Positions 1 through 22,208 of a DNA stretch of 64,000 nt are shown here, piece by piece. Both the position numbers and the translations under genes were made by a program. The DNA comes from Alphaproteobacteria bacterium. GTDB taxonomy: Bacteria > Pseudomonadota > Alphaproteobacteria > JABAAW01 > JAHZMA01. Numbering within the stretch: position 1 is the stretch's first letter; every line of letters starts with the position of its first letter. The DNA lies in the NCBI GenBank assembly GCA_965205905.1, contig CBDBHZ010000012.1:316445-380444 (forward strand). The letters are read 5' to 3'. Under the pieces are notes generated by a model, which was not told the DNA's origin, did no database searches, and worked only from the letters and a program-made list of their open reading frames with translations.

Positions 1-288
1 TTTATCCGCAACCATGCCGAATCTGCCTATCACCCTTGCGGCACTGCCAAGATGGGCGATAAAAACGATAAAATGGCGGTGGTGGATAATGAATGCCGTG
101 TGATTGGGGTGCAAAATTTACGGGTGGCGGATAGTTCTATTTTTCCGCGAATCACCAATGGCAATTTGAATGCGCCGTCTATCATGGTGGGCGATAAGGC
201 ATCTGACCATATTTTAGGCAAGCCGTTACTGCCTGCTGAAAATCTTGAGGCGTTCACTCATCCAAATTGGCAAAAAAGCCAAAGATGA
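1..288 (+). CDS. GMC-family oxidoreductase (choline dehydrogenase-like), C-terminal fragment; 5' end lies outside the window
   Basis: Frame 1 is open from position 1 ([19 protein letters not shown]...[31 protein letters not shown]), which is typical of a GMC oxidoreductase C-terminus. Stop at 286-288. Confidence 0.6.
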
Positions 289-1193
289 CGCCAGTGAAAA
301 ATCAGGTGAAAAATCAGGTGTTGCATGGCGATTGTATCAATTTGATGCGTGATGTTCCCGATAATAGTGCCGCATTATGTATTGCTGACCCGCCTTATAA
401 TATTGGCAAAGATTTTGGCACTACCCATGATGATGCGATGCCCTTGCCTGATTATCTTGAATGGACAAATCAATGGTTGCAGCAGGCGATTCGAATCGTG
501 AGGCCCGATGGGTTGGTTTATATCTACGGTTATGCTGAAATTCTTGCCCATATTGCGGTTAAATATCCGATTGAGAGGCAACATTGGCTGGTATGGCACT
601 ATAAGAATAAAGCCACACCATCATCAAAATTTTGGCAACGAAGTTCGGAAATGATATTATGCCTATGGCAAACCGCAAATCGCCCAAATCTCAATATTGA
701 TGCGATTCGTGAACCCTATAGCGAGTCATTTTTGAATAATGCGGCGGGCAAAACCCGCGCAGGCACCAAAGGCAGGTTTGGCAAATCGGGTGATGCAACC
801 ACTTACCATGCCCATCAAAATGGCGCATTACCACGTGATGTATTGGAAGTGCCAGCATTGGCAGGCGGCGCGGGCAGAGCGCAAAGATGGTTTTATTGTC
901 GCGATTGCTTTGAGGCATATCCACCTGATTCGGCAAAAAATCACGAAAACCATGATATTTTCAAGCACCCGACTCAAAAGCCGATTCGTTTAACGGAACG
1001 TTTGCTTAATTCTTGCATGCAAAAAGGGGATAAGTTACTTATCCCCTTTGCTGGTTCTGGTTCAGAATGTGTGGTAGCGCGCAATAAAGGGCTAGATTTT
1101 ATCGCTTTTGAGGCGAATAAAGATTACACATTACTTGCTAATTCATGGCTTAACAAAAGCCAATCATCAACAAAATCAGTTAGAAACACCTGA
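285..1193 (+). CDS. beta-class DNA amino-methyltransferase (N6-adenine/N4-cytosine, PF01555-like), apparently orphan
   Basis: N-terminal HGDCINLM and CIADPPYN (motif IV); HPTQKP; C-terminal FAGSGSE (motif I). The motif order IV...I means beta class. The ATG at 285 overlaps the upstream stop (ATGA); an alternative TTG lies at 267. Confidence 0.75.
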
Positions 1194-3228: not shown

Positions 3229-4551
3229 TTATCGCATCATGTTGATGATATTCATGGCATCAGCATTGGCATTCAAAGGCGGTTTTTTATGCAATTTCTT
3301 ATGCGATTCTTGTTTTAATGATAATGTTTTTATATCCGATTCTTGCCACATTTCTACCGACATATTATTATTTGGCATATGACTGTTGAAAACATTTTCA
3401 TCCTCAGCTTCTGCCCTGAAATCGGGCGGTGCTGCCAATAGCGGATTGCGTGGCGGTAATCCAACAGGTGCTTTTGCAGGATATAATTTTGCGCGCAAAT
3501 CGTTGATGGATATGCTTTCGCCATCACGTTCAACATGCCAATAAGTCCAGCCATTGCAACTGGGCAGGCCTTGCAAAGTTGCGCCAATCTTATGAATCGA
3601 GCCACGATGCGCCCCCGATTCGATACTGGCATCAGCATAAATTTTGGCAACAAAGCGTCTATCATTGCTAAATAAATCCTCACCCGCTTGTAGCAAGCCA
3701 CTTTCTAATAGATTACCAAAAGGAATGCGAATTTGATTGTTACGCGCAACACCTTTCATATAATGCTTCATTTTCGGTTCTAACTGCTTAATATCAGCGA
3801 GCCGTTGCGTGGCGACATCAATATAATCTTTTCGTTGCTCAACACCGATATAATTACGCCCTAATTTTTTGGCAACCGCAAGCGATGTGCCAGTGCCAGC
3901 AAAGGGGTCAAACACAATATGTCCGGGTTCGGTGCAGGCATTGATGATGCGGTAAAGCAAGGATTCAGGCTTTTGCGTGGGATGCGCTTTTTTGCCCGCC
4001 TCATCTTTCATACGCTCGCCACCCGTGCAAATCGGCAGATACCAATCCGAACGCATTTGCGTATCATCATTCATGCTTTTCAGCGATTGATAATTAAAGT
4101 GATATTTTGCCTTTGGCGATTTTACCGCCCATAGCAAAATTTCGTGAGCGTTGGTAAAACGTGTGCCACGAAAATTAGGCATCGGGTTAGATTTCACCCA
4201 AATCACATCATTGATAAGCCAGAAACCGTTATCCTGCAAAATTTTACCGATGCGGTAAATATTATGATAACTGCCAATCACCCATAATGACGCATCATCT
4301 TTCATGATACGTTTTGCGCCTGATAGCCATTGTTCGGTGAATGAATCATAATGGGCAAAATCGTCAAATTCGTCCCATTTTTCATTGACGCCATCAACCA
4401 TTGATTGGTCGGGGCGCGTTAAGTCGCTGTTGAGTTGTAAGAAGTAGGGGGGGTCTGCAAATACTAAATCTACAGATTCCGATGGCATATCCTGCATCAC
4501 TGATACAGAATCGCCCGCCACTACCCGATTTAGGGGTAAGTCGTTGAACAT
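3229..4551 (-). CDS. ccrM: cell-cycle-regulated DNA adenine methyltransferase CcrM (GANTC family) with ~75-aa low-complexity C-terminal extension
   Basis: Near-colinear match to CcrM: SVDLVFADPPYFLQL, GSYHNIYRIGKILQDNGFWLINDVIWVKSNPMPNFRGTRFTNAHE, HPTQKPESLLYRII, GSIHKIGA...CNGWTYWH. Conserved ccrM-rnhB synteny. Confidence 0.85.
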   Translation of the reverse strand: MFNDLPLNRVVAGDSVSVMQDMPSESVDLVFADPPYFLQLNSDLTRPDQSMVDGVNEKWDEFDDFAHYDSFTEQWLSGAKRIMKDDASLWVIGSYHNIYRIGKILQDNGFWLINDVIWVKSNPMPNFRGTRFTNAHEILLWAVKSPKAKYHFNYQSLKSMNDDTQMRSDWYLPICTGGERMKDEAGKKAHPTQKPESLLYRIINACTEPGHIVFDPFAGTGTSLAVAKKLGRNYIGVEQRKDYIDVATQRLADIKQLEPKMKHYMKGVARNNQIRIPFGNLLESGLLQAGEDLFSNDRRFVAKIYADASIESGAHRGSIHKIGATLQGLPSCNGWTYWHVERDGESISINDLRAKLYPAKAPVGLPPRNPLLAAPPDFRAEAEDENVFNSHMPNNNMSVEMWQESDIKTLSLKQESHKKLHKKPPLNANADAMNIINMMR

Positions 4552-4694: not shown

Positions 4695-5294
4695 TCATTT
4701 TTGCAACAAGCTTTTAACAGGCTGATAGCTGGTGCGGTGATGGGGCGTGATATGGTGCTGTATCAGCGCGTTTACGTGGTTTTTGGTGCCATAACCCATA
4801 TTTTTCTGCCAATCATAATGCGGATAGCGTTGATGCAGACATCGCATTAATTTATCACGCAATGTTTTCGCCAAGATAGATGCGGCGGCAATCGCAAGAT
4901 GGCTATTATCGCCTTTCACGATGGCGATACTGGGTTCGTGCATATTATCGGGGGTTTTATTGCCATCAATCAAAAACTGCTTCACATTGATATGCGGATA
5001 GGCAAGCATCATATTATCGGCGGCGCGTTTCATGGCATTCATACTGGCGTTTAAGATATTGATGCGGTCGATTTCCCTCACCGATGCCGCGCCATAGCCA
5101 TAGGCGGTAAATTGGGTGATAGCAGTCGCTAATTGCTCGCGCTTGGTGGCGCTTAGTTTTTTACTATCGTTAATATCGGCGCAAAATGATGGCAATGTTT
5201 TATCGGGGAAGCAAACGCAAGCGCTGATAACAGGTCCTGCTAACGGACCTCTGCCTGCTTCGTCAATACCAGCATGAAAGGGCAGATGAATCAA
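4695..5294 (-). CDS. rnhB: ribonuclease HII
   Basis: GIDEAGRGPLAGPVISACV N-terminal motif; 199 aa. Confidence 0.85.
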   Translation of the reverse strand: MIHLPFHAGIDEAGRGPLAGPVISACVCFPDKTLPSFCADINDSKKLSATKREQLATAITQFTAYGYGAASVREIDRINILNASMNAMKRAADNMMLAYPHINVKQFLIDGNKTPDNMHEPSIAIVKGDNSHLAIAAASILAKTLRDKLMRCLHQRYPHYDWQKNMGYGTKNHVNALIQHHITPHHRTSYQPVKSLLQK

Positions 5295-7328: not shown

Positions 7329-8399
7329 ATGACAAATTTTCAACCCCACCGTTTTACTGTTGCCCCGATGATGGGCTATAGCCATCGCCACTTTCTTGCT
7401 TTTATGCGAATTATCAGCAAACATTGTCTGTTATTTACCGAAATGTTGCCGATAGCGGCGGTGGTTGCCAATCAGCAAAAATTATGCGATTGGCGGCATG
7501 ATAACGCGCCATTGATTGTGCAATTAGGTGGGTCTGATACCGCATTACTGGCGCAATCATGCAAAATTATCAGCGATTACGGTGGGGCAACTGGTGGGGC
7601 TGTGGGCATTAATCTTAATATGGGATGTCCGTCATCACGGGTGGAAAAGGGCGCGTTTGGCGCATGTTTGATGCTAGAACCAGAAAAAAGCGCATCATTG
7701 GTTGCGGCGATGAAACAAGCAACCTCTTTGCCTATCAGCGTTAAACTCCGCATTGGTGTGGATAGGGGAGGCGTTAATAAAAGCGGTGAGTATAGCGAGG
7801 AAGATGCCGAGAAACTCTATCATTTGATTGGTTTGCTGGTATCTGCGGGTGCCAGTGAGATTTATCTTCATGCCCGCAAAGCGATATTAAAGAAACTGAA
7901 CCCAAAACAGAATCGCAACATTCCGCCATTGCGTTATGATATTGCACAGGCTTGCAAGCAGAACTTTCCTGATGTGCCGATTATCGTTAATGGCGGTATC
8001 GATTCGATGGCGCAAGCAAAAACATTGTTGCAAGATTATGATGGGGTGATGATAGGGCGCGGCTGTATCAATCATCCGCTTCAATTTATGGGCATCGATA
8101 AGGAAATTTTTGGCGATGATGCTGATATGCCAAGCATCGATTCGATATTTCAGCAATATTTAGACTATATGTATCAAGAGTTGGCACGGGTTAAACAGGG
8201 CAATCATTCGGAACGCTATCAGCAAAAATCGGTGTATCATTTTATGTTGCAACCATTACTCACCTTTCTATATGGCATGAAAGGCGCGAAACAATGGCGG
8301 ATAATGGTCAATAATCTGTTCCAAAACCCTGAATTGCTACATGATAAAGCTTATATGCGGGATATGCGTGAAGTCTTACTGAATTTTTATGTTGAGTAG
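7329..8399 (+). CDS. dus: tRNA-dihydrouridine synthase (DusA-like)
   Basis: NLNMGCPSSRVEKGAFGACLM catalytic-Cys motif and TIM-barrel Dus layout. Confidence 0.8.
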   Translation: MTNFQPHRFTVAPMMGYSHRHFLAFMRIISKHCLLFTEMLPIAAVVANQQKLCDWRHDNAPLIVQLGGSDTALLAQSCKIISDYGGATGGAVGINLNMGCPSSRVEKGAFGACLMLEPEKSASLVAAMKQATSLPISVKLRIGVDRGGVNKSGEYSEEDAEKLYHLIGLLVSAGASEIYLHARKAILKKLNPKQNRNIPPLRYDIAQACKQNFPDVPIIVNGGIDSMAQAKTLLQDYDGVMIGRGCINHPLQFMGIDKEIFGDDADMPSIDSIFQQYLDYMYQELARVKQGNHSERYQQKSVYHFMLQPLLTFLYGMKGAKQWRIMVNNLFQNPELLHDKAYMRDMREVLLNFYVE

Positions 8400-8431
8400 T
8401 AGCAACACGGAACACCGCTAATATTGAGTAT

Positions 8432-8558
8432 GGCGGGGGGATTATCAAGGGTGAGGTTTGCCCGCCATTGGTACAAGGGCAAACCGAACTTGCATAGGTT
8501 TGTAGGGGTGCCGCCGCACCCCCCTTGATACATAAAACAACCTCGCAAAGCCCCCCAT
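8432..8558. repeat. GC-rich nested palindromic element (stacked hairpins) in the dusA / MTase-HNH convergent intergenic region
   Basis: Perfect 9-bp stem ggtttgccc(8456-8464)/gggcaaacc(8477-8485). Perfect 7-bp stem ggggtgc(8505-8511)-cgcc-gcacccc(8516-8522). Outer arms tatcaaggg(8443-8451)/cccttgata(8522-8530) and ggcgggggg/gccccccat. Confidence 0.5.
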
Positions 8559-8566
8559 ATATAGAC

Positions 8567-9808
8567 TCAACTATAATTAATCACTTCTCTCGCTTCTTTA
8601 ATTTTCTTCACCTTTGCAAGCAAATATTCCATTGGGCGATTGCCTTTTACGCGGTTACAATTGCCACATAAAAGCTGATAATTTTCGTAATAATCACCGC
8701 CTCCTTTTGACTTGGGAATCACATGGTCAATCTCAAGATTGCGCTGTTCAAATTCATTAAAGCAACCGTTACATTTTCCTGTTTGCGCTTTATGTAAACG
8801 TGTTTTAATTGGCTCTGCTGGTGCGATTCTCTCAACATCTGTTCGTTGCGGCGGAATGGTTGTATTGATAAAATCTGAAAACATGCCTGCATCACCTGAT
8901 AGACGTTCCACCAATATATCAGCGGCTTTTTCTTCAATATCACAGCCAATCCATTTGCGATTTAATTGTTGTGATGCCACGCAAGCAGTGGCACAGCCAC
9001 AAAACGGGTCGAATACCACATCGCCTTTGTTACTTGATGCTTTAATGATGCGATGCAGTAACGCAAGCGGTTTTTGTGTTGGGTATCCTGTGCGTTCTTT
9101 TGGTGAAATATGCCCACCAGCTGGTATATCAGTCCAGTAATCCGCGGGCAATCTACCCCTTGCGATATATTCTGCCTGAACATCCTTGTCTTGCAATTTG
9201 CCACCGCCATCACCCCATATAGCGGGTTTTTTGCCCTTATCTGAATTTAGTCTTTTATACGGAATTCTAACATCATCATCATTGAAAACCCAATCATCAC
9301 TTTTGCTATATCGTAATATAGTGTCATGCTTTTTTGGAAAATTATTGCGCGACCCACTAGGACCACTATAACACCATATAATTTCATTACGAAAATTATT
9401 CTTGCCAAAAATGCCATCCATAATGATTTTTAGATAATGGCTTGCGGTTGGGTCAATATGCACATAGATACTGCCTGTTACTTTTAATATTCTGTTCATC
9501 TCAAGCAATCTCTGTGTCATATAGGCAATATACGAAGCCATCGCTGTTGAATGCAGGCGATAGATGCTATCAATAAAATCAGCAATATCAGGGTGGGTTT
9601 CATAAAGCCTCTCAAGGTAAGCGATATTAACATCGTCCCAACGCCACATATCCTTAAATGATGCCCCTGCTGATTTACTACCTACTGGCGCAGAATAAGT
9701 GCGCTTGCTATTAAAAGGTGGGTCAAGATAGATGAGGTCAACTGATTCGCTATCCATGCCATTAAGCAGAAATAGATTATCCAATGTATAAAGGGTGTTA
9801 CTACTCAT
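8567..9808 (-). CDS. beta-class DNA amino-methyltransferase fused to C-terminal HNH endonuclease domain
   Basis: MTase part: SVDLIYLDPPFNSK (motif IV), NEIIW, GYPTQKPLALLHRII, DPFCGCATA (motif I). Tail: CNGCFN...IDHVIPKSKGG...N...CGNCNRVKGN, a canonical HNH. The start overlaps the fliN stop. Confidence 0.8.
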   Translation of the reverse strand: MSSNTLYTLDNLFLLNGMDSESVDLIYLDPPFNSKRTYSAPVGSKSAGASFKDMWRWDDVNIAYLERLYETHPDIADFIDSIYRLHSTAMASYIAYMTQRLLEMNRILKVTGSIYVHIDPTASHYLKIIMDGIFGKNNFRNEIIWCYSGPSGSRNNFPKKHDTILRYSKSDDWVFNDDDVRIPYKRLNSDKGKKPAIWGDGGGKLQDKDVQAEYIARGRLPADYWTDIPAGGHISPKERTGYPTQKPLALLHRIIKASSNKGDVVFDPFCGCATACVASQQLNRKWIGCDIEEKAADILVERLSGDAGMFSDFINTTIPPQRTDVERIAPAEPIKTRLHKAQTGKCNGCFNEFEQRNLEIDHVIPKSKGGGDYYENYQLLCGNCNRVKGNRPMEYLLAKVKKIKEAREVINYS

Positions 9809-10481
9809 TACTGGCATAAAACAGCGTATGATGCTCATCAATATCGGCAATCATATTCACCACGCGTATTTGAAAATACTCACCATCAGATTCCAAATGC
9901 CCTTGCCCGATAAGGTGATGCCCGATTTTCAATTCCAGACTGCTTTCAATATCTTTATCAATCTCAATAATCGCACCGCGCCCGATTTTCATTAATTGCT
10001 CAATGCGTAACTCGGTATTGCCGATTTCGGCAACAATTTGCAATGGCACACTCGCCATAGCGGTGGTCTCAATATCAAATCCCGGCACAGTTACAACGGT
10101 TGGCTCTACTTTTTGCACCGAAGCATGTTCACCTTCAGGGTCGATATTATATTTATGGTCTGTATGAGGAATATCTTGTTGCGTATTGCCATGATAAATA
10201 TCTTCTTCTTTTAAGATATCAGCAGTTTTTTCAGGGGATACCGCCTGTGCGGTTTGGTTGAGTAATGTGTCTATATCAAAATTATCGCCTAAAGTTTCAC
10301 CTTGCACACCATCGCGCGGTATATGCACAGCGCCTATAGTTTCTGGATTGGTGTTTGCTGGCATTATATTTTCTGGCATTATATTTTCTGGATTGGCATC
10401 ATTCAGAATCTGCGTTAAATCATCGGGCAACTGCCCATTATTAGCATTATTAAACTCATCAGCCATATTATCATCCTTCAT
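9801..10481 (-). CDS. fliN: flagellar motor switch FliN-like protein (SpoA domain) with acidic repetitive N-terminus
   Basis: C-terminus VPLQIVAEIGNTELRIEQLMKIGRGAIIEIDK...LIGQGHLESDGEYFQIRV is a FliN/SpoA domain. The N-terminus is low-complexity, D/E/N/P-rich. Confidence 0.6.
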   Translation of the reverse strand: MKDDNMADEFNNANNGQLPDDLTQILNDANPENIMPENIMPANTNPETIGAVHIPRDGVQGETLGDNFDIDTLLNQTAQAVSPEKTADILKEEDIYHGNTQQDIPHTDHKYNIDPEGEHASVQKVEPTVVTVPGFDIETTAMASVPLQIVAEIGNTELRIEQLMKIGRGAIIEIDKDIESSLELKIGHHLIGQGHLESDGEYFQIRVVNMIADIDEHHTLFYASNE

Positions 10482-12456: not shown

Positions 12457-12656
12457 ATATTTGTCTCTATTATCAGTAGCATGGTTGCTATTACGATATA
12501 ACATAAACAGTCTAAGGCTAGCAAGCAATCAGTTTATGATAAAATATTATAATTGCACTGTATAAATATGCCTTGCTGTGTTAATATTGCAAAAAGTAAC
12601 GACATATAATATTACCAGCGATGTCGCTTACATATTGAGGGGATGATTGCTTTAAG

Positions 12657-13922
12657 ATGCAGGAAAATATAACAAACAGAACGATTTTCTGCCGTGATAA
12701 TCTTGATATTATGCGGGGGATGGATACAGAATCTATCGACCTCATCTATCTTGACCCACCTTTTAACACAAAAAAAACATTTACTGCCCCGATTGGCAGC
12801 AGTGCAGAGGGGGCTTCGTTTTCTGATATTTTCCGTGAAGAAGATGTGAAAGATGAGTGGTTGCTAGATATTAAAGAAGATTTTTTTTCTATCCATGAAT
12901 TTCTAAATTCTGTCAAAAATATAGAAGGGCGCACATCTTATAATTTTTGTTATCTTGCTTATATGGCGATTCGATTGATAGAATGCCATCGTATCTTAAA
13001 AGATACGGGTAGCCTATATTTACATTGCGACCCAACCATGAGCCATTATTTAAAAATTCTGCTAGATTGTATTTTTGGTGAGAAGAAATTTAGGAATGAA
13101 ATTATATGGAGTTACCAACGGTGGACGGGCGCAACAAAGAATTTTCAAAAAATGCACGATATTATTTTATTTTATGCCAAAAACAACAATAACTTTACCA
13201 TGATTAGCGAGCCCTATAGCGATAAATCAAAACATAAGGGGCGGCGATTTACAACCACGCAAAAGGGCGCCATCACAGGTCAAGAATATATCAATGCGAA
13301 CCGCGAAAAAGCAATGCGTGACGTTTGGGAAATATCAATATTGAATAGCCAAGCCAAAGAGCGCACGGGCTATCCCACTCAAAAACCTCTTGCTTTGCTA
13401 GAACGCATTATCAAAGCCTCTTGCCCCGAAAATGGTATCGTGCTTGACCCCTTTTGCGGTTGCGCCACCACATGTATTGCGGCTGAACGATTGGGCAAAA
13501 AATGGATAGGCATTGATATATCAGTAAAAGCTTACGAATTGGTGCGTGAGAGGCTGGCAAAAGAAGTGGAGTGGGAAGATAGCCTGTTCCATGAAGAGTT
13601 GGTGAATTTTCAAACAAATCCGCCTAACCGCACTGATATTGGGCAAGATACGCAAGTAAAAAAATATGTCTATATTATATCGCATCAGCAATATCAGGGC
13701 GAATATAAAGTCGGGATTGCGTCTGATGTAAAATCAAGGCTGAATAGCTATCAAACGGGCGATCCTAACCGTGCCTATCACTTAGAATATTCATTTCATA
13801 CGCCATATTTTCGGGCGATAGAAAACTATATTCATGAAAAATATGATAATAAACATGAATGGGTGAGTGGTGAATTAAAGGATATTATTAAAGATATTGA
13901 AAATTATCAATCAAACGGGTAA
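12657..13922 (+). CDS. beta-class DNA amino-methyltransferase fused to C-terminal T5orf172/GIY-YIG-like domain (paralogue of 8567-9808)
   Basis: SIDLIYLDPPFNTK, NEIIW, GYPTQKPLALLERII, DPFCGCATT, colinear with the HNH-fused paralogue. Tail YVYIISHQ...YKVGIASDVKSRLNSYQTGDP...EKY...HEWV fits the T5orf172 (PF10544-like) pattern. Confidence 0.75.
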   Translation: MQENITNRTIFCRDNLDIMRGMDTESIDLIYLDPPFNTKKTFTAPIGSSAEGASFSDIFREEDVKDEWLLDIKEDFFSIHEFLNSVKNIEGRTSYNFCYLAYMAIRLIECHRILKDTGSLYLHCDPTMSHYLKILLDCIFGEKKFRNEIIWSYQRWTGATKNFQKMHDIILFYAKNNNNFTMISEPYSDKSKHKGRRFTTTQKGAITGQEYINANREKAMRDVWEISILNSQAKERTGYPTQKPLALLERIIKASCPENGIVLDPFCGCATTCIAAERLGKKWIGIDISVKAYELVRERLAKEVEWEDSLFHEELVNFQTNPPNRTDIGQDTQVKKYVYIISHQQYQGEYKVGIASDVKSRLNSYQTGDPNRAYHLEYSFHTPYFRAIENYIHEKYDNKHEWVSGELKDIIKDIENYQSNG

Positions 13923-13966
13923 TATCATATATAACTATAAAAATGGTTCGGAGGTAAAAGATAAGA

Positions 13967-18239: not shown

Positions 18240-21200
18240 TTAAACGTCGTTAAAATAACGGGCACGGTAATCGCTTAAAAAGCTTTCGGTTGTTGCTTCT
18301 TGTGATAAAAGCCGTATCACCTCGCTGGCTTCAGCGGTTGAAAAATTATCACTGGAGGTGGCTTTGATATAGTCAAAGGCACGCTTTAATGGTGAGTTCC
18401 GCATACTCGGCTCAAAACGTTGTGCGACTTGCCGAAGCGTATCATATTGCTGTGATAATTGCAGTGACAACAGCCAGTTAATCAGATAATTGGCTTTTTG
18501 GTTGCCTAAAAACACATCTTCAGCTGGTGGCTCACCAGTAAGCCGCTGCATGGTAATGGCAGCACGATACCAATCTTGATTGTTCCAAAAAATATCGCGA
18601 CGCAGTAAATCGGCATTCAGTGATAAATCACCAGCGATTAAATCAAGTGCCGATTCTGGCTGTTCTAAATCAATCAATGCTTTGGCGTATAATCTTCTGG
18701 CATCAACGCTTTCTTGTGATGATTCAATGCCCAAATCGCTCCGATAGGTTTCAAACACATTAATCGTGCCTTCAGGGTTGCCCATCGTAATATGCAATAG
18801 TCCAACTTTTACGATAAGCGACCGCTTTTGCTTTGCCGTTAGCAACCTTTCAGCTATCAGTGGTTCTAACAATTCATTGGCGTTTTGATAAAATTGTTCC
18901 TCTATCAGATTATCGGCGATATTAGAAATAATCCGCACGCGTTCATTGCCAATGGGAAGCAATTCACGGAAATTGCGTAATAATTTGAGAGATGTTTGGG
19001 CATCAATATTAATATTTTCGTTTTCTTCTAAAAAGATTGAACGGAACACAGAAATCATTTCTTGGGTGAGTAATAAAGCAGAGGGGTTTTCAGGAAAGTA
19101 AGCAGCGGCATCACGTAAAATATTAAGCCCTAGCTCTACCTCACCAATGTCTAAATATAATTCACCTAAGCGCCCTAATAATTGTAATTCCAAATTATCA
19201 CCACGCCAAATATAGCGTAGATGCTCTAATTTTTGCGCCGATTCTTCAGGTAAGTTATCTCCCCTATTAAGGTCATAATTGATTTTTTCTAATTCAGCGA
19301 GAACCACCCATTTATTATTGGGGTCTAACTCAATCATTTCTTGCCAAACACCATAGGCATAATTGCTATCATTTTTGCGTAAGGCGAATAAGCCATCATA
19401 ATATAAAAAACGCTGATATTCATATTTAGCCATTTGGTTAATAAAATTACGCAATGTTTCTAACCATGTTTGCACCACAACCAAATCATTCGTGGCAAAA
19501 CCAGTTTCAATCTGCCAGTTGGCAATCCAATTTCTTAAATAGACAGGATAACGCCGTGCAAAATCGCTTGAACGTTCAAAGCGTAATTGGGCAGCTTCCC
19601 ACTCACCTTTTTGGGCGGCCGCAATACCTTGCCATAAGATTGCCTCGCCATAAGAAGAAAACACATCATCCGCTAGAATTTCAATGGCATCGTCGGTGCG
19701 CTCCATCAGCAGTAAAACCGCAGCTTTTAAGAGGCGGTAATTGATAGAATCGGTGGGATTATCAAAAACATCTTCATAAAGTTCTATATAGCCATATGCT
19801 TCACTGTTTAATTTTTGCCCTAAATAAAAAGTAGCCGCAGAAAGGTGATAAGCCCCACGTTCATTGCTAGGTAGGGTATAGTCTAAACTGTTATGAAGCT
19901 GTTGACGCGCTTCTAAAAATGGTAAAGCGCTATAAGAAATTGGTGGGAAATTAAGCAACGCATCATTCGAGGTATCATTTGCGCCGTCACCGTCATTTTC
20001 TAGTTTTTGCTGTGCAATATTTAAACCTGTTTCTTTATTAACGATGTAACCAGTTTCAGTATCAAAAATACTGATTCCTTCAATATGCGGCACAATCGCA
20101 ACACCTTGCTGTGCAGAAAGAAGCGAAAATTCTACAAAATCTCGCTGTTGTGTATTGGCAATGCCTAATGATTTAAATGTGCCAACCAGCAACTCACCAC
20201 CATAGATGGGGTCGGTAAATGTTACTGCTTTGCCAATATTGCTTGATGATAAAAGTAAATATTTATTGTTTTTGGCATCACGCTGTATATGCCCTGATAC
20301 TGTTTGCGTGGGGGTATAGGGTTCATCATGGAAACGCAAAATATAATTGAAGCCTTTTTGTGTAATAGATGCATTAATCTCGCGTGTTGGTAAAAACCTT
20401 AAAACAGTTGCCTCAGGCACCTCAACCCTTGCCACCTCCAGTAATAAGGGCAATAATCTGGTTCGCAATTTGCTTAAATTCACAGGCAAGTCACGGTCGG
20501 CGATAAACCAGTAATAGCCACCATATCTGAAAAATGCTGTGCCAATATTCTCAGTAAGTGGGATTGTAACGGTTTGTTGAGCATCAGGTAATGTTAGAAT
20601 TGAGCTTCCTAAATTGCGATTGATATTGGTTTTTGGGGGCGTGAAGGGGATTGTGCTAAAACGCTGAGAATCACCCCTAATCGTAGCTTTGGGAAAATCA
20701 TTGCGCTGCACCACTTCTTGTTGTTTTGGCAGTAAATCAATGACAATTTTTGTGCCTGAGCGAAAATGCCTGATATTGTAGCTATCGGGGACTTCCATTG
20801 CGAACACACTGGTGCTATCAATTTGCAAAATACGTGCATTACCAAATGGTTCGTTAGCATTAAACTCAACTTGGCTGATATCAATGGCTTCATTTTGCCC
20901 AAATGTAATTTGCATCTCTTCACTATCATACTCAATCAGATATTGCACTTCGGTTGTAAAATCAAAAATTATTCTTAAATATTCGGGCGTCCGTCCGATA
21001 CGCACAATATTTCTATTATCATTGCCGAATTGGTCATCATCGCTTAATGCTTCTAAATCAACACCTTGTGAAGAAAATACATTATTTGATTGCGTGTTGT
21101 TACTGGCTTCTTCCACAGAAGGTAAATCCTGATAACCCGCAATGATATTGTCACTATCGCCATTGAAACTGTTATCATCAATAATCGCTTCAGCAGCTGT

Positions 21201-22208
21201 ATCATTTTGTAAAAGCTGACTGGTTTGGTCTCTTGGCAGCATATCCACAATCACACGGCTGCCAATTCTTCTATGGGCAATCGCGAGCTGTTCGCTGGTT
21301 GGTAGAATAAAGACGCGCCCATTGCCAGTGATTCTGGCAGGGCCTGATGCTAATTCAAGCGAAGGTTCAATTTCTGAAAGTGTTTCCGATGTAAAAGGGC
21401 GGTCAAAAATAATACTGACATTGGTGGCACTGGCGGTTGCTTGATATTGCGGCTGGTCCGAGAAGATAAACTCTAATCTACCGCCACCATCATTTAATGA
21501 GTAGGTATTAATGGTGATAATTTCTATATCTGGCTCGCTTGCCTCTGCTTGTGGTGTTGCATTTGGTGTTGATTCGTCAGTGACGCTTAAATCCCCATCT
21601 AAATCCCCATCTAAATTTGGGGCATTTTGTGAATCCACTTCATCAGCATCTAGCGTAATAATTTGTGGCTGTGTAGAAGGGATTAAATCAGATTCCGATA
21701 TTTCTTGTTCATTAATCTCTGTTTGTGGCTGAGGCGTTATCAGGGCTTGCGATTCTTGCAAATATTGGTAAGTTTCCACCGCTTCGGTGAAATTACCCTG
21801 CCCAATATCAAACACAATGGAATTGTTAAAGCGAAACGGACGGAATGCCATACCATCTTGCAACTGAATCCTTATTTGAGTATCAGATAAACGGGTAATG
21901 TTATCCACATAATTTCTCATCACATCATTAATAGGTGGGATGGTAAAATTCGTCGAATCAGCAAATGTAATAACCACATTATTATTATCAGTGTTAGGTT
22001 CAATCGTATAGGCGGTGATTTCGGGCCAATCAAACGCGATACGCAAAAATTGCCCGTCATCATGTGGCGCAATACGTAGCGATTGTGCCTGTGCATGATG
22101 CACGGTGAACATAAATACAAACCCCACGACTGCCAGTAGGGCGGTGTTGATTAATAAACGGGTATGGTTACTTAATATCATATATGACAATTTCAATCCG
22201 GTTGACAA
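18240..22208 (-). CDS. large secreted protein with N-terminal repeated ~60-aa beta-domain repeats (AMIN-like pattern) and C-terminal TPR-like region
   Basis: Signal/TM segment; repeated LRIAFDW / LEFIFSD / LRIIFDF modules; D/E/N-rich linkers; TPR-like helical repeats in the C-terminal ~500 aa. Confidence 0.5.
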   Translation of the reverse strand: MSTGLKLSYMILSNHTRLLINTALLAVVGFVFMFTVHHAQAQSLRIAPHDDGQFLRIAFDWPEITAYTIEPNTDNNNVVITFADSTNFTIPPINDVMRNYVDNITRLSDTQIRIQLQDGMAFRPFRFNNSIVFDIGQGNFTEAVETYQYLQESQALITPQPQTEINEQEISESDLIPSTQPQIITLDADEVDSQNAPNLDGDLDGDLSVTDESTPNATPQAEASEPDIEIITINTYSLNDGGGRLEFIFSDQPQYQATASATNVSIIFDRPFTSETLSEIEPSLELASGPARITGNGRVFILPTSEQLAIAHRRIGSRVIVDMLPRDQTSQLLQNDTAAEAIIDDNSFNGDSDNIIAGYQDLPSVEEASNNTQSNNVFSSQGVDLEALSDDDQFGNDNRNIVRIGRTPEYLRIIFDFTTEVQYLIEYDSEEMQITFGQNEAIDISQVEFNANEPFGNARILQIDSTSVFAMEVPDSYNIRHFRSGTKIVIDLLPKQQEVVQRNDFPKATIRGDSQRFSTIPFTPPKTNINRNLGSSILTLPDAQQTVTIPLTENIGTAFFRYGGYYWFIADRDLPVNLSKLRTRLLPLLLEVARVEVPEATVLRFLPTREINASITQKGFNYILRFHDEPYTPTQTVSGHIQRDAKNNKYLLLSSSNIGKAVTFTDPIYGGELLVGTFKSLGIANTQQRDFVEFSLLSAQQGVAIVPHIEGISIFDTETGYIVNKETGLNIAQQKLENDGDGANDTSNDALLNFPPISYSALPFLEARQQLHNSLDYTLPSNERGAYHLSAATFYLGQKLNSEAYGYIELYEDVFDNPTDSINYRLLKAAVLLLMERTDDAIEILADDVFSSYGEAILWQGIAAAQKGEWEAAQLRFERSSDFARRYPVYLRNWIANWQIETGFATNDLVVVQTWLETLRNFINQMAKYEYQRFLYYDGLFALRKNDSNYAYGVWQEMIELDPNNKWVVLAELEKINYDLNRGDNLPEESAQKLEHLRYIWRGDNLELQLLGRLGELYLDIGEVELGLNILRDAAAYFPENPSALLLTQEMISVFRSIFLEENENINIDAQTSLKLLRNFRELLPIGNERVRIISNIADNLIEEQFYQNANELLEPLIAERLLTAKQKRSLIVKVGLLHITMGNPEGTINVFETYRSDLGIESSQESVDARRLYAKALIDLEQPESALDLIAGDLSLNADLLRRDIFWNNQDWYRAAITMQRLTGEPPAEDVFLGNQKANYLINWLLSLQLSQQYDTLRQVAQRFEPSMRNSPLKRAFDYIKATSSDNFSTAEASEVIRLLSQEATTESFLSDYRARYFNDV

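Follow-up and report, generated by a model that had tools for sequence, protein, structure and literature searches.

Combined restriction-modification (R-M) enzymes, which unite a DNA methylase and a nuclease, and mobile R-M genes are both well known, and the principle behind the gene described here is not new. This gene, which we call MT-HNH, lies in a 64,000-nucleotide stretch of the genome of an Alphaproteobacteria bacterium (assembly GCA_965205905.1, contig CBDBHZ010000012.1, positions 316,445 to 380,444 of the forward strand; hereafter the window, numbered from its first letter), and its product joins a beta-class methylase of the N6-adenine type to a predicted HNH nuclease domain. Several described systems resemble it. 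The Type IIC/IIG enzymes (MmeI, BpuSI, Eco57I) also have nuclease and methylase in one polypeptide, presumably with one specificity module; some of them have no separate methylase, their members differ mainly in the recognition module, and several paralogues may occur in a genome. In combined R-M enzymes both activities draw on a single specificity module, which leaves specificity free to diverge, a property referred to as 'functional synchrony' (Pingoud, Wilson and Wende 2014, PMC4081073).

In spite of this likeness, MT-HNH differs in its build from each of its nearest counterparts: (i) The canonical Type IIG enzyme consists of an N-terminal PD-(D/E)XK nuclease, a gamma-class (NPPY/F/W) methylase and a separate C-terminal specificity domain (PMC4081073), whereas MT-HNH has a beta-class, Mod-like methylase with an internal target-recognition region and a C-terminal HNH, is much smaller (413 amino acids, aa) and is known from sequence alone. 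MT-HNH thus falls outside the gamma-class lineage of MmeI and BpuSI, and 'Type IIC' can apply to it in an operational sense only. (ii) BtgZI is a characterised precedent for the domain order, with the methylase N-terminal and the nuclease C-terminal as in MT-HNH, but its methylase is of the alpha class and its nuclease of the PD-QXK type (PMC4081073). (iii) The Mod subunit of Type III systems (EcoP15I Mod, Mbo45V Mod) is, like the methylase part of MT-HNH, a beta-class N6-methyladenine (m6A) enzyme with DPPF/Y followed by an F-x-D-x-W region and with a central target-recognition region (TRD), and both the MTase_III models of PADLOC and the PDB chains 4zcf and 7dsu match MT-HNH. Exchange of TRDs between alleles is typical of mod genes. 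Type III systems have in addition a res gene with a helicase/ATPase motor and a PD-(D/E)XK nuclease in Res, while in MT-HNH the nuclease is fused directly to the Mod-like part. (iv) The stand-alone Type II and orphan methylases M.RsrI, M.MboIIA, M.BceJIV and CcrM have the same fold and motif order and are the best structural matches (template modelling score to the target 0.74-0.82), and they lack the nuclease domain.

The nuclease part has relatives of its own. Its CxxC...DH...N...CxxC-N core is shared with the HNH modules of Cas9, IscB, group II intron maturases and McrA, and with the restriction endonucleases KpnI, MnlI and Hpy99I. The HNH of Cas9, IscB and intron proteins is an unspecific one-strand cutter that another module puts in place; in MT-HNH that positioning module would be a DNA methylase, whereas the Type II HNH restriction endonucleases are separate proteins with a separate methylase. 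Finally, the free-standing homing genes of phages (HNH, GIY-YIG) are, like MT-HNH, single open reading frames (ORFs) of the same folds that sit between conserved genes, come without a recombinase and are present in some relatives and absent from others. Unlike these, MT-HNH has no recurrent homing site, carries a complete methylase with a hypervariable TRD, and has a sister clade with an Mrr-type nuclease.

A methylase and a predicted nuclease in one chain

MT-HNH occupies positions 8567-9808 of the minus strand and codes for 413 aa from an ATG at 9808, with the stop codon at 8567-8569. The mechanical ORF reaches a TTG at 9850, and an earlier note on this DNA, made from the letters alone, had given the gene as 8567-9850 on the minus strand; the ORF stands, but the TTG is unlikely as its start and the ATG at 9808 is the likely one. 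A second in-frame ATG lies upstream at 9817, and the database protein P0001, from a 579,725-bp contig, is an exact match to the product begun at 9808.

The methylase domain (8909-9742, minus strand; residues 23-300) is recognised by Pfam as PF01555, N6_N4_Mtase (E 2e-48, profile positions 1-220 of 221), by Foldseek and by its motifs: DPPF at residues 29-32, NEIIW at 141-145, PTQKP at 243-247 and DPFCGCAT at 267-274. Their order is the permuted one of the beta class, with DPPF (motif IV) at 29-32, a variable region at 176-236 and the S-adenosylmethionine motif I, FDPFCGCAT, at 266-274; DPPF instead of SPPY/F suggests the N6 of adenine as the target. The variable region is the putative TRD (9101-9283, minus strand; residues ~176-236), where column conservation drops to 0.30-0.37 from 0.8-0.95 in the flanks. 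A conserved linker (8774-8908, minus strand; residues 301-345, with the pattern ERLS..AG.F..F....PQRTD) leads to the HNH domain of the beta-beta-alpha-metal type (8636-8773, minus strand; residues 346-391), which matches PF01844 (E 2e-12) and also HNH_5 (E 9e-12) and holds the full CxxC...DH...N...CxxCN set: C346-x2-C349, D361-H362, N376, C381-x2-C384 and N385. Thus the beta-class methylase and HNH in one chain that the earlier note had read by eye are both recovered, with a conserved linker between them, by Pfam and in the AlphaFold2 model, and every motif that it quoted is present.

Both parts are strongly conserved. In an alignment of 65 sequences, D361, H362, N376, C346, C349, C381 and C384 are invariant and N385 is at least 90% conserved, with the same outcome in 120 sequences; the methylase motif residues, DPPF and FxGxG included, are invariant or at least 90% conserved in the same 65-120 homologues. 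An HNH segment that lacked the catalytic His/Asn on alignment, which would have spoken against the proposed architecture, is therefore not what we see, D361-H362, N376 and N385 being conserved. By these alignments both catalytic centres are intact and kept so by purifying selection. In NCBIfam and among PDB sequences the methylase part matches YhdJ, CcrM, M.MboIIA, M.RsrI, M.BceJIV and Type III Mod, and the HNH part the HNH modules of Cas9, IscB and group II intron proteins. An AlphaFold2 model built on 65 homologues has a mean predicted local distance difference test score (pLDDT) of 80.6 and a predicted template modelling score (pTM) of 0.82, and DSSP finds in it the strands 358-362 and 377-381 and the helix 382-390 of the HNH beta-beta-alpha core. 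Foldseek against the PDB returns M.RsrI, M.BceJIV, CcrM, M.MboIIA and EcoP15I Mod, all over the methylase part only, and a methylase-HNH fusion is absent from the 50 matches listed. MT-HNH would accordingly be expected to methylate adenine, and its predicted HNH domain to cleave DNA.

The fusion is the common state of a very large family

All 120 best database homologues (58-76% identical) have methylase and HNH in a single chain of ~400-430 aa, and the metagenome-assembled genomes (MAGs) named as their sources include Alpha- and Gammaproteobacteria, Ignavibacteria, Bacteroidia, Planctomycetes, Fibrobacteria and Treponematales. When 1.84 billion cluster representatives were searched exhaustively, 3,380 scored below 1e-30, and among the 150 best of these 50%-identity representatives at least ~90 have a match that extends through the HNH motif. 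As judged from these searches, MT-HNH is not a one-off but belongs to a very large and hardly studied family, thousands of sequences strong, of probable one-protein R-M enzymes; the earlier note had also overlooked a paralogue with a different nuclease only 2.8 kb away.

The breadth of the family also disposes of a trivial explanation. A frameshift or sequencing error that merged two neighbouring genes is a general possibility in any metagenome-assembled genome, and it has nothing more specific in its favour; because all 120 best homologues are fused alike, with the same unbroken architecture and length in many assemblies and phyla and in many 50%-identity representatives, and with a conserved linker and a model of pTM 0.82, we can for practical purposes set aside an assembly or annotation artefact, whose probability is negligible. 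One representative, P0320, is of a different size: its 1598 aa contain four separate methylase-matching stretches, and it is either a true multi-methylase fusion or a tandem array called as one gene.

The site between dusA and fliN is empty in relatives

Relatives of the window were reached through DusA homologues, and five syntenic loci were compared: L085 (GCA_022599575.1), L086 (GCA_022605385.1), L087 and L088 (both ENA ERZ23491653), with DusA 83-86% identical, and L089, an outgroup on a 1.93-Mb contig with DusA 60% identical. L087 ends in the CitMHS gene and L088 spans the dusA-fliN-gap part only; L085, L086 and L089 keep the full order methylase(~290 aa)-mlaC-folB-folP-ccrM-rnhB-Na/H exchanger-orf-dusA-fliN-gap-zinc ribbon/DUF3426-folK-CitMHS-aspS-large ORF, with one extra aminotransferase gene between the methylase and mlaC in L089. 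In five of the five loci, the outgroup included, dusA directly abuts fliN; the two genes are convergent and their stop codons lie 2-5 nucleotides (nt) apart or overlap.

The window is collinear with L085-L087 at 80-85% nucleotide identity except for two gaps, at 8368/8380-9801 and at 12588-13940/13969. At the first of these, blastn collinearity with L085-L088 is broken at 8367-8379 and 9802-9803, and the same block is missing in L089. This block, Insertion 1 (8400-9800), consists of the MT-HNH ORF and a 167-nt 3' tail, lies between the convergent stops of dusA and fliN and has no counterpart in the syntenic relatives. Because the outgroup L089 has neither block, both are insertions in the lineage of the window and not deletions elsewhere. 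From this comparison MT-HNH emerges as a horizontally acquired single-gene insertion, the derived state at this site. The horizontal acquisition that the earlier note had suspected is thus borne out by a site that is empty in five related loci, down to an outgroup with 60% identical DusA, and the neighbourhood comparison that it had proposed did not find the same fusion at the same site in all relatives.

The note had argued for transfer from base composition. MT-HNH has a G+C content of 0.403 against 0.428 +/- 0.025 for 57 ORFs of the window, a difference of ~1 standard deviation (SD), and at third codon positions 0.333 against 0.412 +/- 0.047, or ~1.7 SD; several host genes of the window are equally AT-rich. 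The mild excess is real but, at ~1 SD in G+C, makes a weak argument for transfer, and we have not used base composition as evidence for it.

The boundaries of the insertion are sharp. At the empty sites both genes end in GAG TGA and so form the palindrome GAGTGA-TT-TCACTC (L086 10555-10580); at the filled site both gene ends read GAG TAG (8380-8410; 9795-9812). The only possible end-repeat seen is a short split inverted match of 8 nt at the ends of the insert (AGTA..ACAC), which may be an insertion footprint or may be due to chance. At neither of the two window insertions did we find an integrase, a transposase, a target duplication, an attC-like site or a tRNA or structured-RNA signature; tRNA and Rfam scans of the window gave no matches, and a search of the window for flanking direct or inverted repeats returned nothing beyond the paralogy of the two methylase genes. 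The flanks are collinear housekeeping genes, and neither insertion has the features of an integron cassette or of transposon or prophage cargo.

The 3' tail, which fills the 167 nt between the stops of dusA and MT-HNH (8400-8566), is an imperfect palindrome rich in G6/C6 runs (minimum free energy -63 kcal/mol, z -2.0). It does not occur at the empty sites of the relatives, has no match in Rfam and shares an exact 20-nt stretch, TCGCAAAGCCCCCCATATAT, with a tandem ~90-nt repeat on L083 (19100-19300), a contig described below. We considered the tail as an attC site or a terminator and rejected both, since its long hairpin reaches only z = -2 and it looks like a small lineage repeat; it is probably a lineage-specific element resembling repetitive extragenic palindromes (REP) or miniature inverted-repeat transposable elements (MITE), separate from the MT-HNH gene.

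The junction with fliN

At its 5' end MT-HNH runs into the host fliN-like gene (junction at 9801-9817, minus strand). The fliN stop TAG occupies 9803-9801, and both in-frame start codons of MT-HNH, ATG 9808-9806 and ATG 9817-9815, lie inside the last fliN codons, with the former overlapping the fliN stop by 8 nt (AAT GAG TAG / ATG AGT AG). Homology to the relatives picks up again at 9802/9803, and the N-terminus that is conserved in the family starts only at residue 4 (NTLYT), so that both ATGs stand in host-derived codons. For this reason MT-HNH should have no 5' untranslated region of its own and should rely on the transcription of fliN, with which it would be co-transcribed. The overlap of its start with the stop of the FliN-like gene, which the earlier note had remarked on, is there to be seen; the translational coupling that it drew from this is made more plausible by the 8-nt overlap and the borrowed start codon, and MT-HNH is probably coupled to fliN in this way. 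The label 'fliN-gap operon' fares less well, as the best promoter-like site of the region lies between gap and fliN, which leaves the label uncertain; such matches are no commoner here than in shuffled sequence. The fliN-like gene itself has a FliMN_C domain and is probably a true flagellar gene, because the window also holds motB-plug and cheZ genes and genes for methyl-accepting chemotaxis proteins.

A second insertion and copies at other loci

The second block, Insertion 2 (12588-13945), lies between the DUF3426/zinc-ribbon gene and folK and is absent from L085, L086, L087 and L089, which cover the site; in relatives without it the zinc-ribbon gene is followed directly by folK. It carries the paralogue of MT-HNH (12657-13922, plus strand; 421 aa), which is 42% identical to it over the methylase scaffold and the linker and has in place of the HNH a T5orf172/MUG113 (GIY-YIG-like) nuclease at residues 337-405. 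A PxRTD motif in the linker is common to the two. The T5orf172 family equals the HNH family in size and uniformity, its members show the same conserved scaffold with a variable TRD, several copies can lie on a single contig, and some are named 'GIY-YIG nuclease family protein' by NCBI. The GIY-YIG-like paralogue is hence a second, independent insertion of the same kind of unit.

Close homologues of the paralogue led to further relatives. In the closest relative of the window, L084 (90% nucleotide identity), the paralogue has the same position, and the contig stops within fliN, short of the MT-HNH site. The contig L083, from the same sample as L084, has a second copy of the paralogue (85% nucleotide identity) in a different context, after an ABC-ATPase gene, and its homology to the window comprises positions 12654-13935 only, starting 3 nt ahead of the ATG and ending 13 nt past the stop. 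By eye, this copy ends ~20 nt from an apparent tRNA 3' end on the opposite strand (L083 10640-10720, TGGAGGCACGAGCCGGAATCGAACCGGC...), and the contig also codes for an ankyrin-repeat protein. A similar case exists for MT-HNH. The MAG JAHZMA01, whose own dusA/fliN site (L085) is empty, has a 72%-identical MT-HNH gene elsewhere (L001), 51 nt downstream of a 459-aa ORF that we read by eye as dnaA; its 80% nucleotide homology to the window covers the ORF only and is interrupted exactly over the TRD, with no alignment across 9103-9301. Since the homology of both the L083 and the L001 copies is confined to the ORF, genes of the MT-HNH type move as bare ORFs.

Neighbours, nucleases and recognition regions in the family

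A scan of one genome per species, with further look-ups, gave 82 loci. All-against-all clustering of their 804 neighbouring ORFs returned no recurrent gene among the non-methylase neighbours, and the gene most often seen alongside, at 16 loci, is a further member of the methylase family itself. The upstream neighbour lies on the same strand in 56 of 77 cases; this is ordinary for bacteria, and we dropped it. The contexts of the genes vary, from dusA/fliN in the window to the ABC-ATPase gene in L083, the by-eye dnaA in L001 and other housekeeping genes. No res-like ORF flanks either MT-HNH or its paralogue in the window, and we rejected a Type III R-M system as a candidate; the distant relatives L073, L076, L077 and L080 share a large downstream ORF that is Res-like by eye only.

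Two parts of the chain vary from member to member. At the C-terminus, 72 full-length relatives carry an Mrr_cat PD-(D/E)XK nuclease (39), an HNH (13) or a T5orf172 domain (2), and the presence of three nuclease folds at the same position speaks for a generic cutting module and not for a structural role tied to one fold. The other part is the TRD. Same-strand tandem arrays occur in Poribacteria (L007 7430-12852, four MT-HNH genes 12-374 nt apart), Caldisericota (L013 1-5418, four), Ca. Symbiothrix (L081 1136-3674, two) and others, and in the L007 and L081 arrays the copies are 90-100% identical, in protein and in DNA, over the N-terminal part, the C-terminal methylase part and the HNH, and only 15-45% over the TRD. 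This suggests enzymes of differing specificity that are kept uniform by gene conversion. Across the family, TRD identity to the window protein ranges from 10 to 57% and is decoupled from scaffold identity: one group, whose named members are alphaproteobacterial (P0008, P0012, P0015), has scaffolds 74-94% and TRDs 10-26% identical, and another, with named members from Ignavibacteria, Bacteroidia and Thermoguttaceae (P0006, P0007, P0013), has scaffolds 65-78% and TRDs 51-57% identical.

Fused methylase-HNH genes, 46-48% identical to MT-HNH, are also found on predicted viral contigs, next to an integrase gene (L090 5818-7209) and next to a tail-fibre gene (L092 5998-7206), and such contigs could serve as carriers of the gene from one phylum to another. 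The annotated collections of phages and plasmids yield matches to the methylase part only (at most 48% identity), with no record that matches through the HNH motif, and in PADLOC only the generic Type II and Type III methylase models match MT-HNH. Many of the carrier MAGs have sponge-derived names (Poribacteria, Spongiihabitans, Poriferihabitaceae, Ca. Synechococcus spongiarum, Ca. Halichondribacter), and Ca. Symbiothrix and several other carriers are, as we take them to be, termite-gut MAGs.

Other features of the conserved block

Besides the two acquired genes, the first 14 kb of the window hold two further beta-class methylases, a bare 308-aa PF01555 enzyme (267-1193, plus strand) and the CcrM orthologue (3229-4551, minus strand; 555 bits to NF050803, with a RAMA domain). 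Because both are conserved at the same positions in L085-L087 and L089, they are vertically inherited, which makes two vertical and two acquired methylases in this part of the window. We also tried MT-HNH as a candidate CcrM; its match to NF050803 reaches 77 bits and spans only 71 residues, and the orthologue is the gene at 3229-4551. The block has another site of presence and absence, where a SocA_Panacea-domain gene and an ORF without assignment are inserted between ccrM and rnhB in relatives (L086 5869-6738; L087 6239-7108) and lacking in the window (junction ~4700-4714). A 1322-aa ORF (18240-22208, minus strand), at the same position in L085, L086 and L089, gave no confident Pfam domain and a sub-threshold TPR-like match only.

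Discussion

Our preferred reading, to which we give a little more than even odds (about 0.55), is that MT-HNH is a self-contained single-chain R-M enzyme, Type IIC-like in REBASE terms and of unusual build. The N-terminal Mod-like beta-class m6A methyltransferase would recognise a short DNA site through its internal TRD and methylate the host copies of that site, and the C-terminal HNH, sequence-unspecific and carried on the conserved 45-residue linker, would cut where the protein is bound to an unmethylated site, or close by. Beta-class methylases act as dimers (M.RsrI, M.MboIIA, CcrM, Mod2) and one HNH site cuts one strand, so that breaking both strands would require either a dimer or a pair of enzymes at two sites. 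The gene arrived by horizontal transfer as a bare ORF between the convergent stops of dusA and fliN; it would now share the fliN transcript, with its translation beginning at a start codon in the last fliN codons. TRD-dependent cleavage, action as a dimer and a role in defence are what we infer from the comparative picture. As no partner gene recurs in the 82 loci, MT-HNH would have to supply its own recognition and its own self-protection; as the nuclease fold can be swapped, generic cutting seems to be what selection keeps; and as a near-constant HNH is joined to differing TRDs, the HNH is unlikely to own a long recognition site, which argues against a classical homing endonuclease. Intact active sites, the lack of a partner, swapped nucleases and a diversification essentially limited to the TRD are together best fitted by a single-chain R-M enzyme. 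The earlier note had offered three options, namely a single-chain R-M unit, a methylation-linked nuclease and a selfish element; the choice was apt, the comparative data favour the first of them, and the mobility is real.

Several points weigh against this reading. With R and M fused, the methylase would hardly have a head start in a new cell, post-segregational killing would be weak, and the enzyme would need some means of sparing the DNA of its own host. HNH and GIY-YIG-like domains are classic homing endonuclease folds, and the ORF-precise insertions look homing-like. MT-HNH stands among housekeeping genes without a recognisable defence island, and the case for its co-transcription with fliN is made by an 8-nt overlap together with consensus promoter scans at chance level. 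Our literature searches found no study of the methylase-nuclease fusion architecture and no activity data for any member.

The most serious competitor, which we regard as possible though doubtful, is that MT-HNH is a selfish 'homing' gene, whose nuclease breaks genomes or loci free of the gene so that repair copies the ORF in, whose methylase immunises the carriers, and for which defence is incidental. The insertions of single ORFs without integrase, transposase, target duplication or attC-like site would follow from this, as would the presence and absence among close relatives, the copies at different loci in related genomes, the several copies per genome and a copy-to-copy homology that stops within a few nt of the ORF ends; HNH and GIY-YIG-like folds are moreover typical of free-standing homing endonucleases (PMC4081073). 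Classical homing, however, would reuse one site, and there is no recurrent neighbour in the 82 loci; a near-identical HNH on very different TRDs is unlikely to hold the specificity of a long homing site, and the commonest sister clade carries an Mrr-type PD-(D/E)XK nuclease, which is not a usual homing fold. Homing and R-M partly overlap in any case, since R-M genes are known to behave selfishly. A bolder version, which we consider decidedly speculative, would make the fusions with HNH, T5orf172 and Mrr a distinct class of autonomous one-gene mobile elements, in which the nuclease itself catalyses or triggers ORF-precise insertion beside host stop codons, for instance at palindromic junctions of convergent terminators like GAGTGA-TT-TCACTC, the methylase marks the colonised genome as 'self', and TRD shuffling creates new incompatibility types. 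It would account for insertions that end with the ORF and borrow a start codon, for the tandem arrays, and for the abundance of copies in MAGs with sponge and termite-gut names.

Other readings put the weight on the methylase. MT-HNH might be an orphan regulatory or anti-restriction methylase whose nuclease-like domain serves DNA binding, nicking or repair, for instance a protective methylase of phage origin turned chromosomal passenger. The scaffold is indeed common in phages as a stand-alone methylase (PHROG 67), the locus has no restriction partner, the lineage uses solitary methylases (the vertical CcrM and the 308-aa enzyme of the window), and CcrM itself has a C-terminal non-catalytic DNA-binding domain (RAMA). 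Yet all HNH catalytic and zinc residues are conserved across phyla, where mere DNA binding needs no set of D-H, N and N, two other nuclease folds replace the HNH at the same position, which points to selection for nuclease chemistry, and the diversification of TRDs in tandem arrays is hard to explain for a regulatory enzyme; we therefore hold this to be unlikely. A methylation-dependent or -guided nuclease, in which the HNH cuts DNA marked by its own or another methylase in a Type IV-like logic or as programmed self-nicking, is very improbable. It has for it only the presence of methylase and nuclease in one chain and the several other adenine methylases of the region, while an enzyme that cut at the very mark it writes would be self-destructive, no modification-reader domain (SRA, EVE/PUA, winged-helix DpnI-like, RAMA) was detected in MT-HNH, and there is no homology to the known Type IV families in PADLOC.

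If active as proposed, MT-HNH would be a very compact (~410 aa) one-protein R-M enzyme made of a Mod-like beta-class methylase and an HNH cutter, a build that is not listed in the standard review of Type II enzymes (PMC4081073). The family to which it belongs appears uncharacterised, and the modular swapping of its nucleases and TRDs is striking. The window provides an unusually clean before-and-after record of two separate bare-gene insertions into a conserved block of housekeeping genes, for which empty as well as filled sites, an outgroup and a copy at another locus are at hand. This is of interest for the movement of R-M genes in the absence of recombinases, and for the question why many of the carrier MAGs, with several copies per genome, have sponge- and termite-gut-symbiont names. 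With swapped TRDs and three interchangeable nuclease folds, the family may be a source of many specificities and a model for the combination of recognition and cutting modules.

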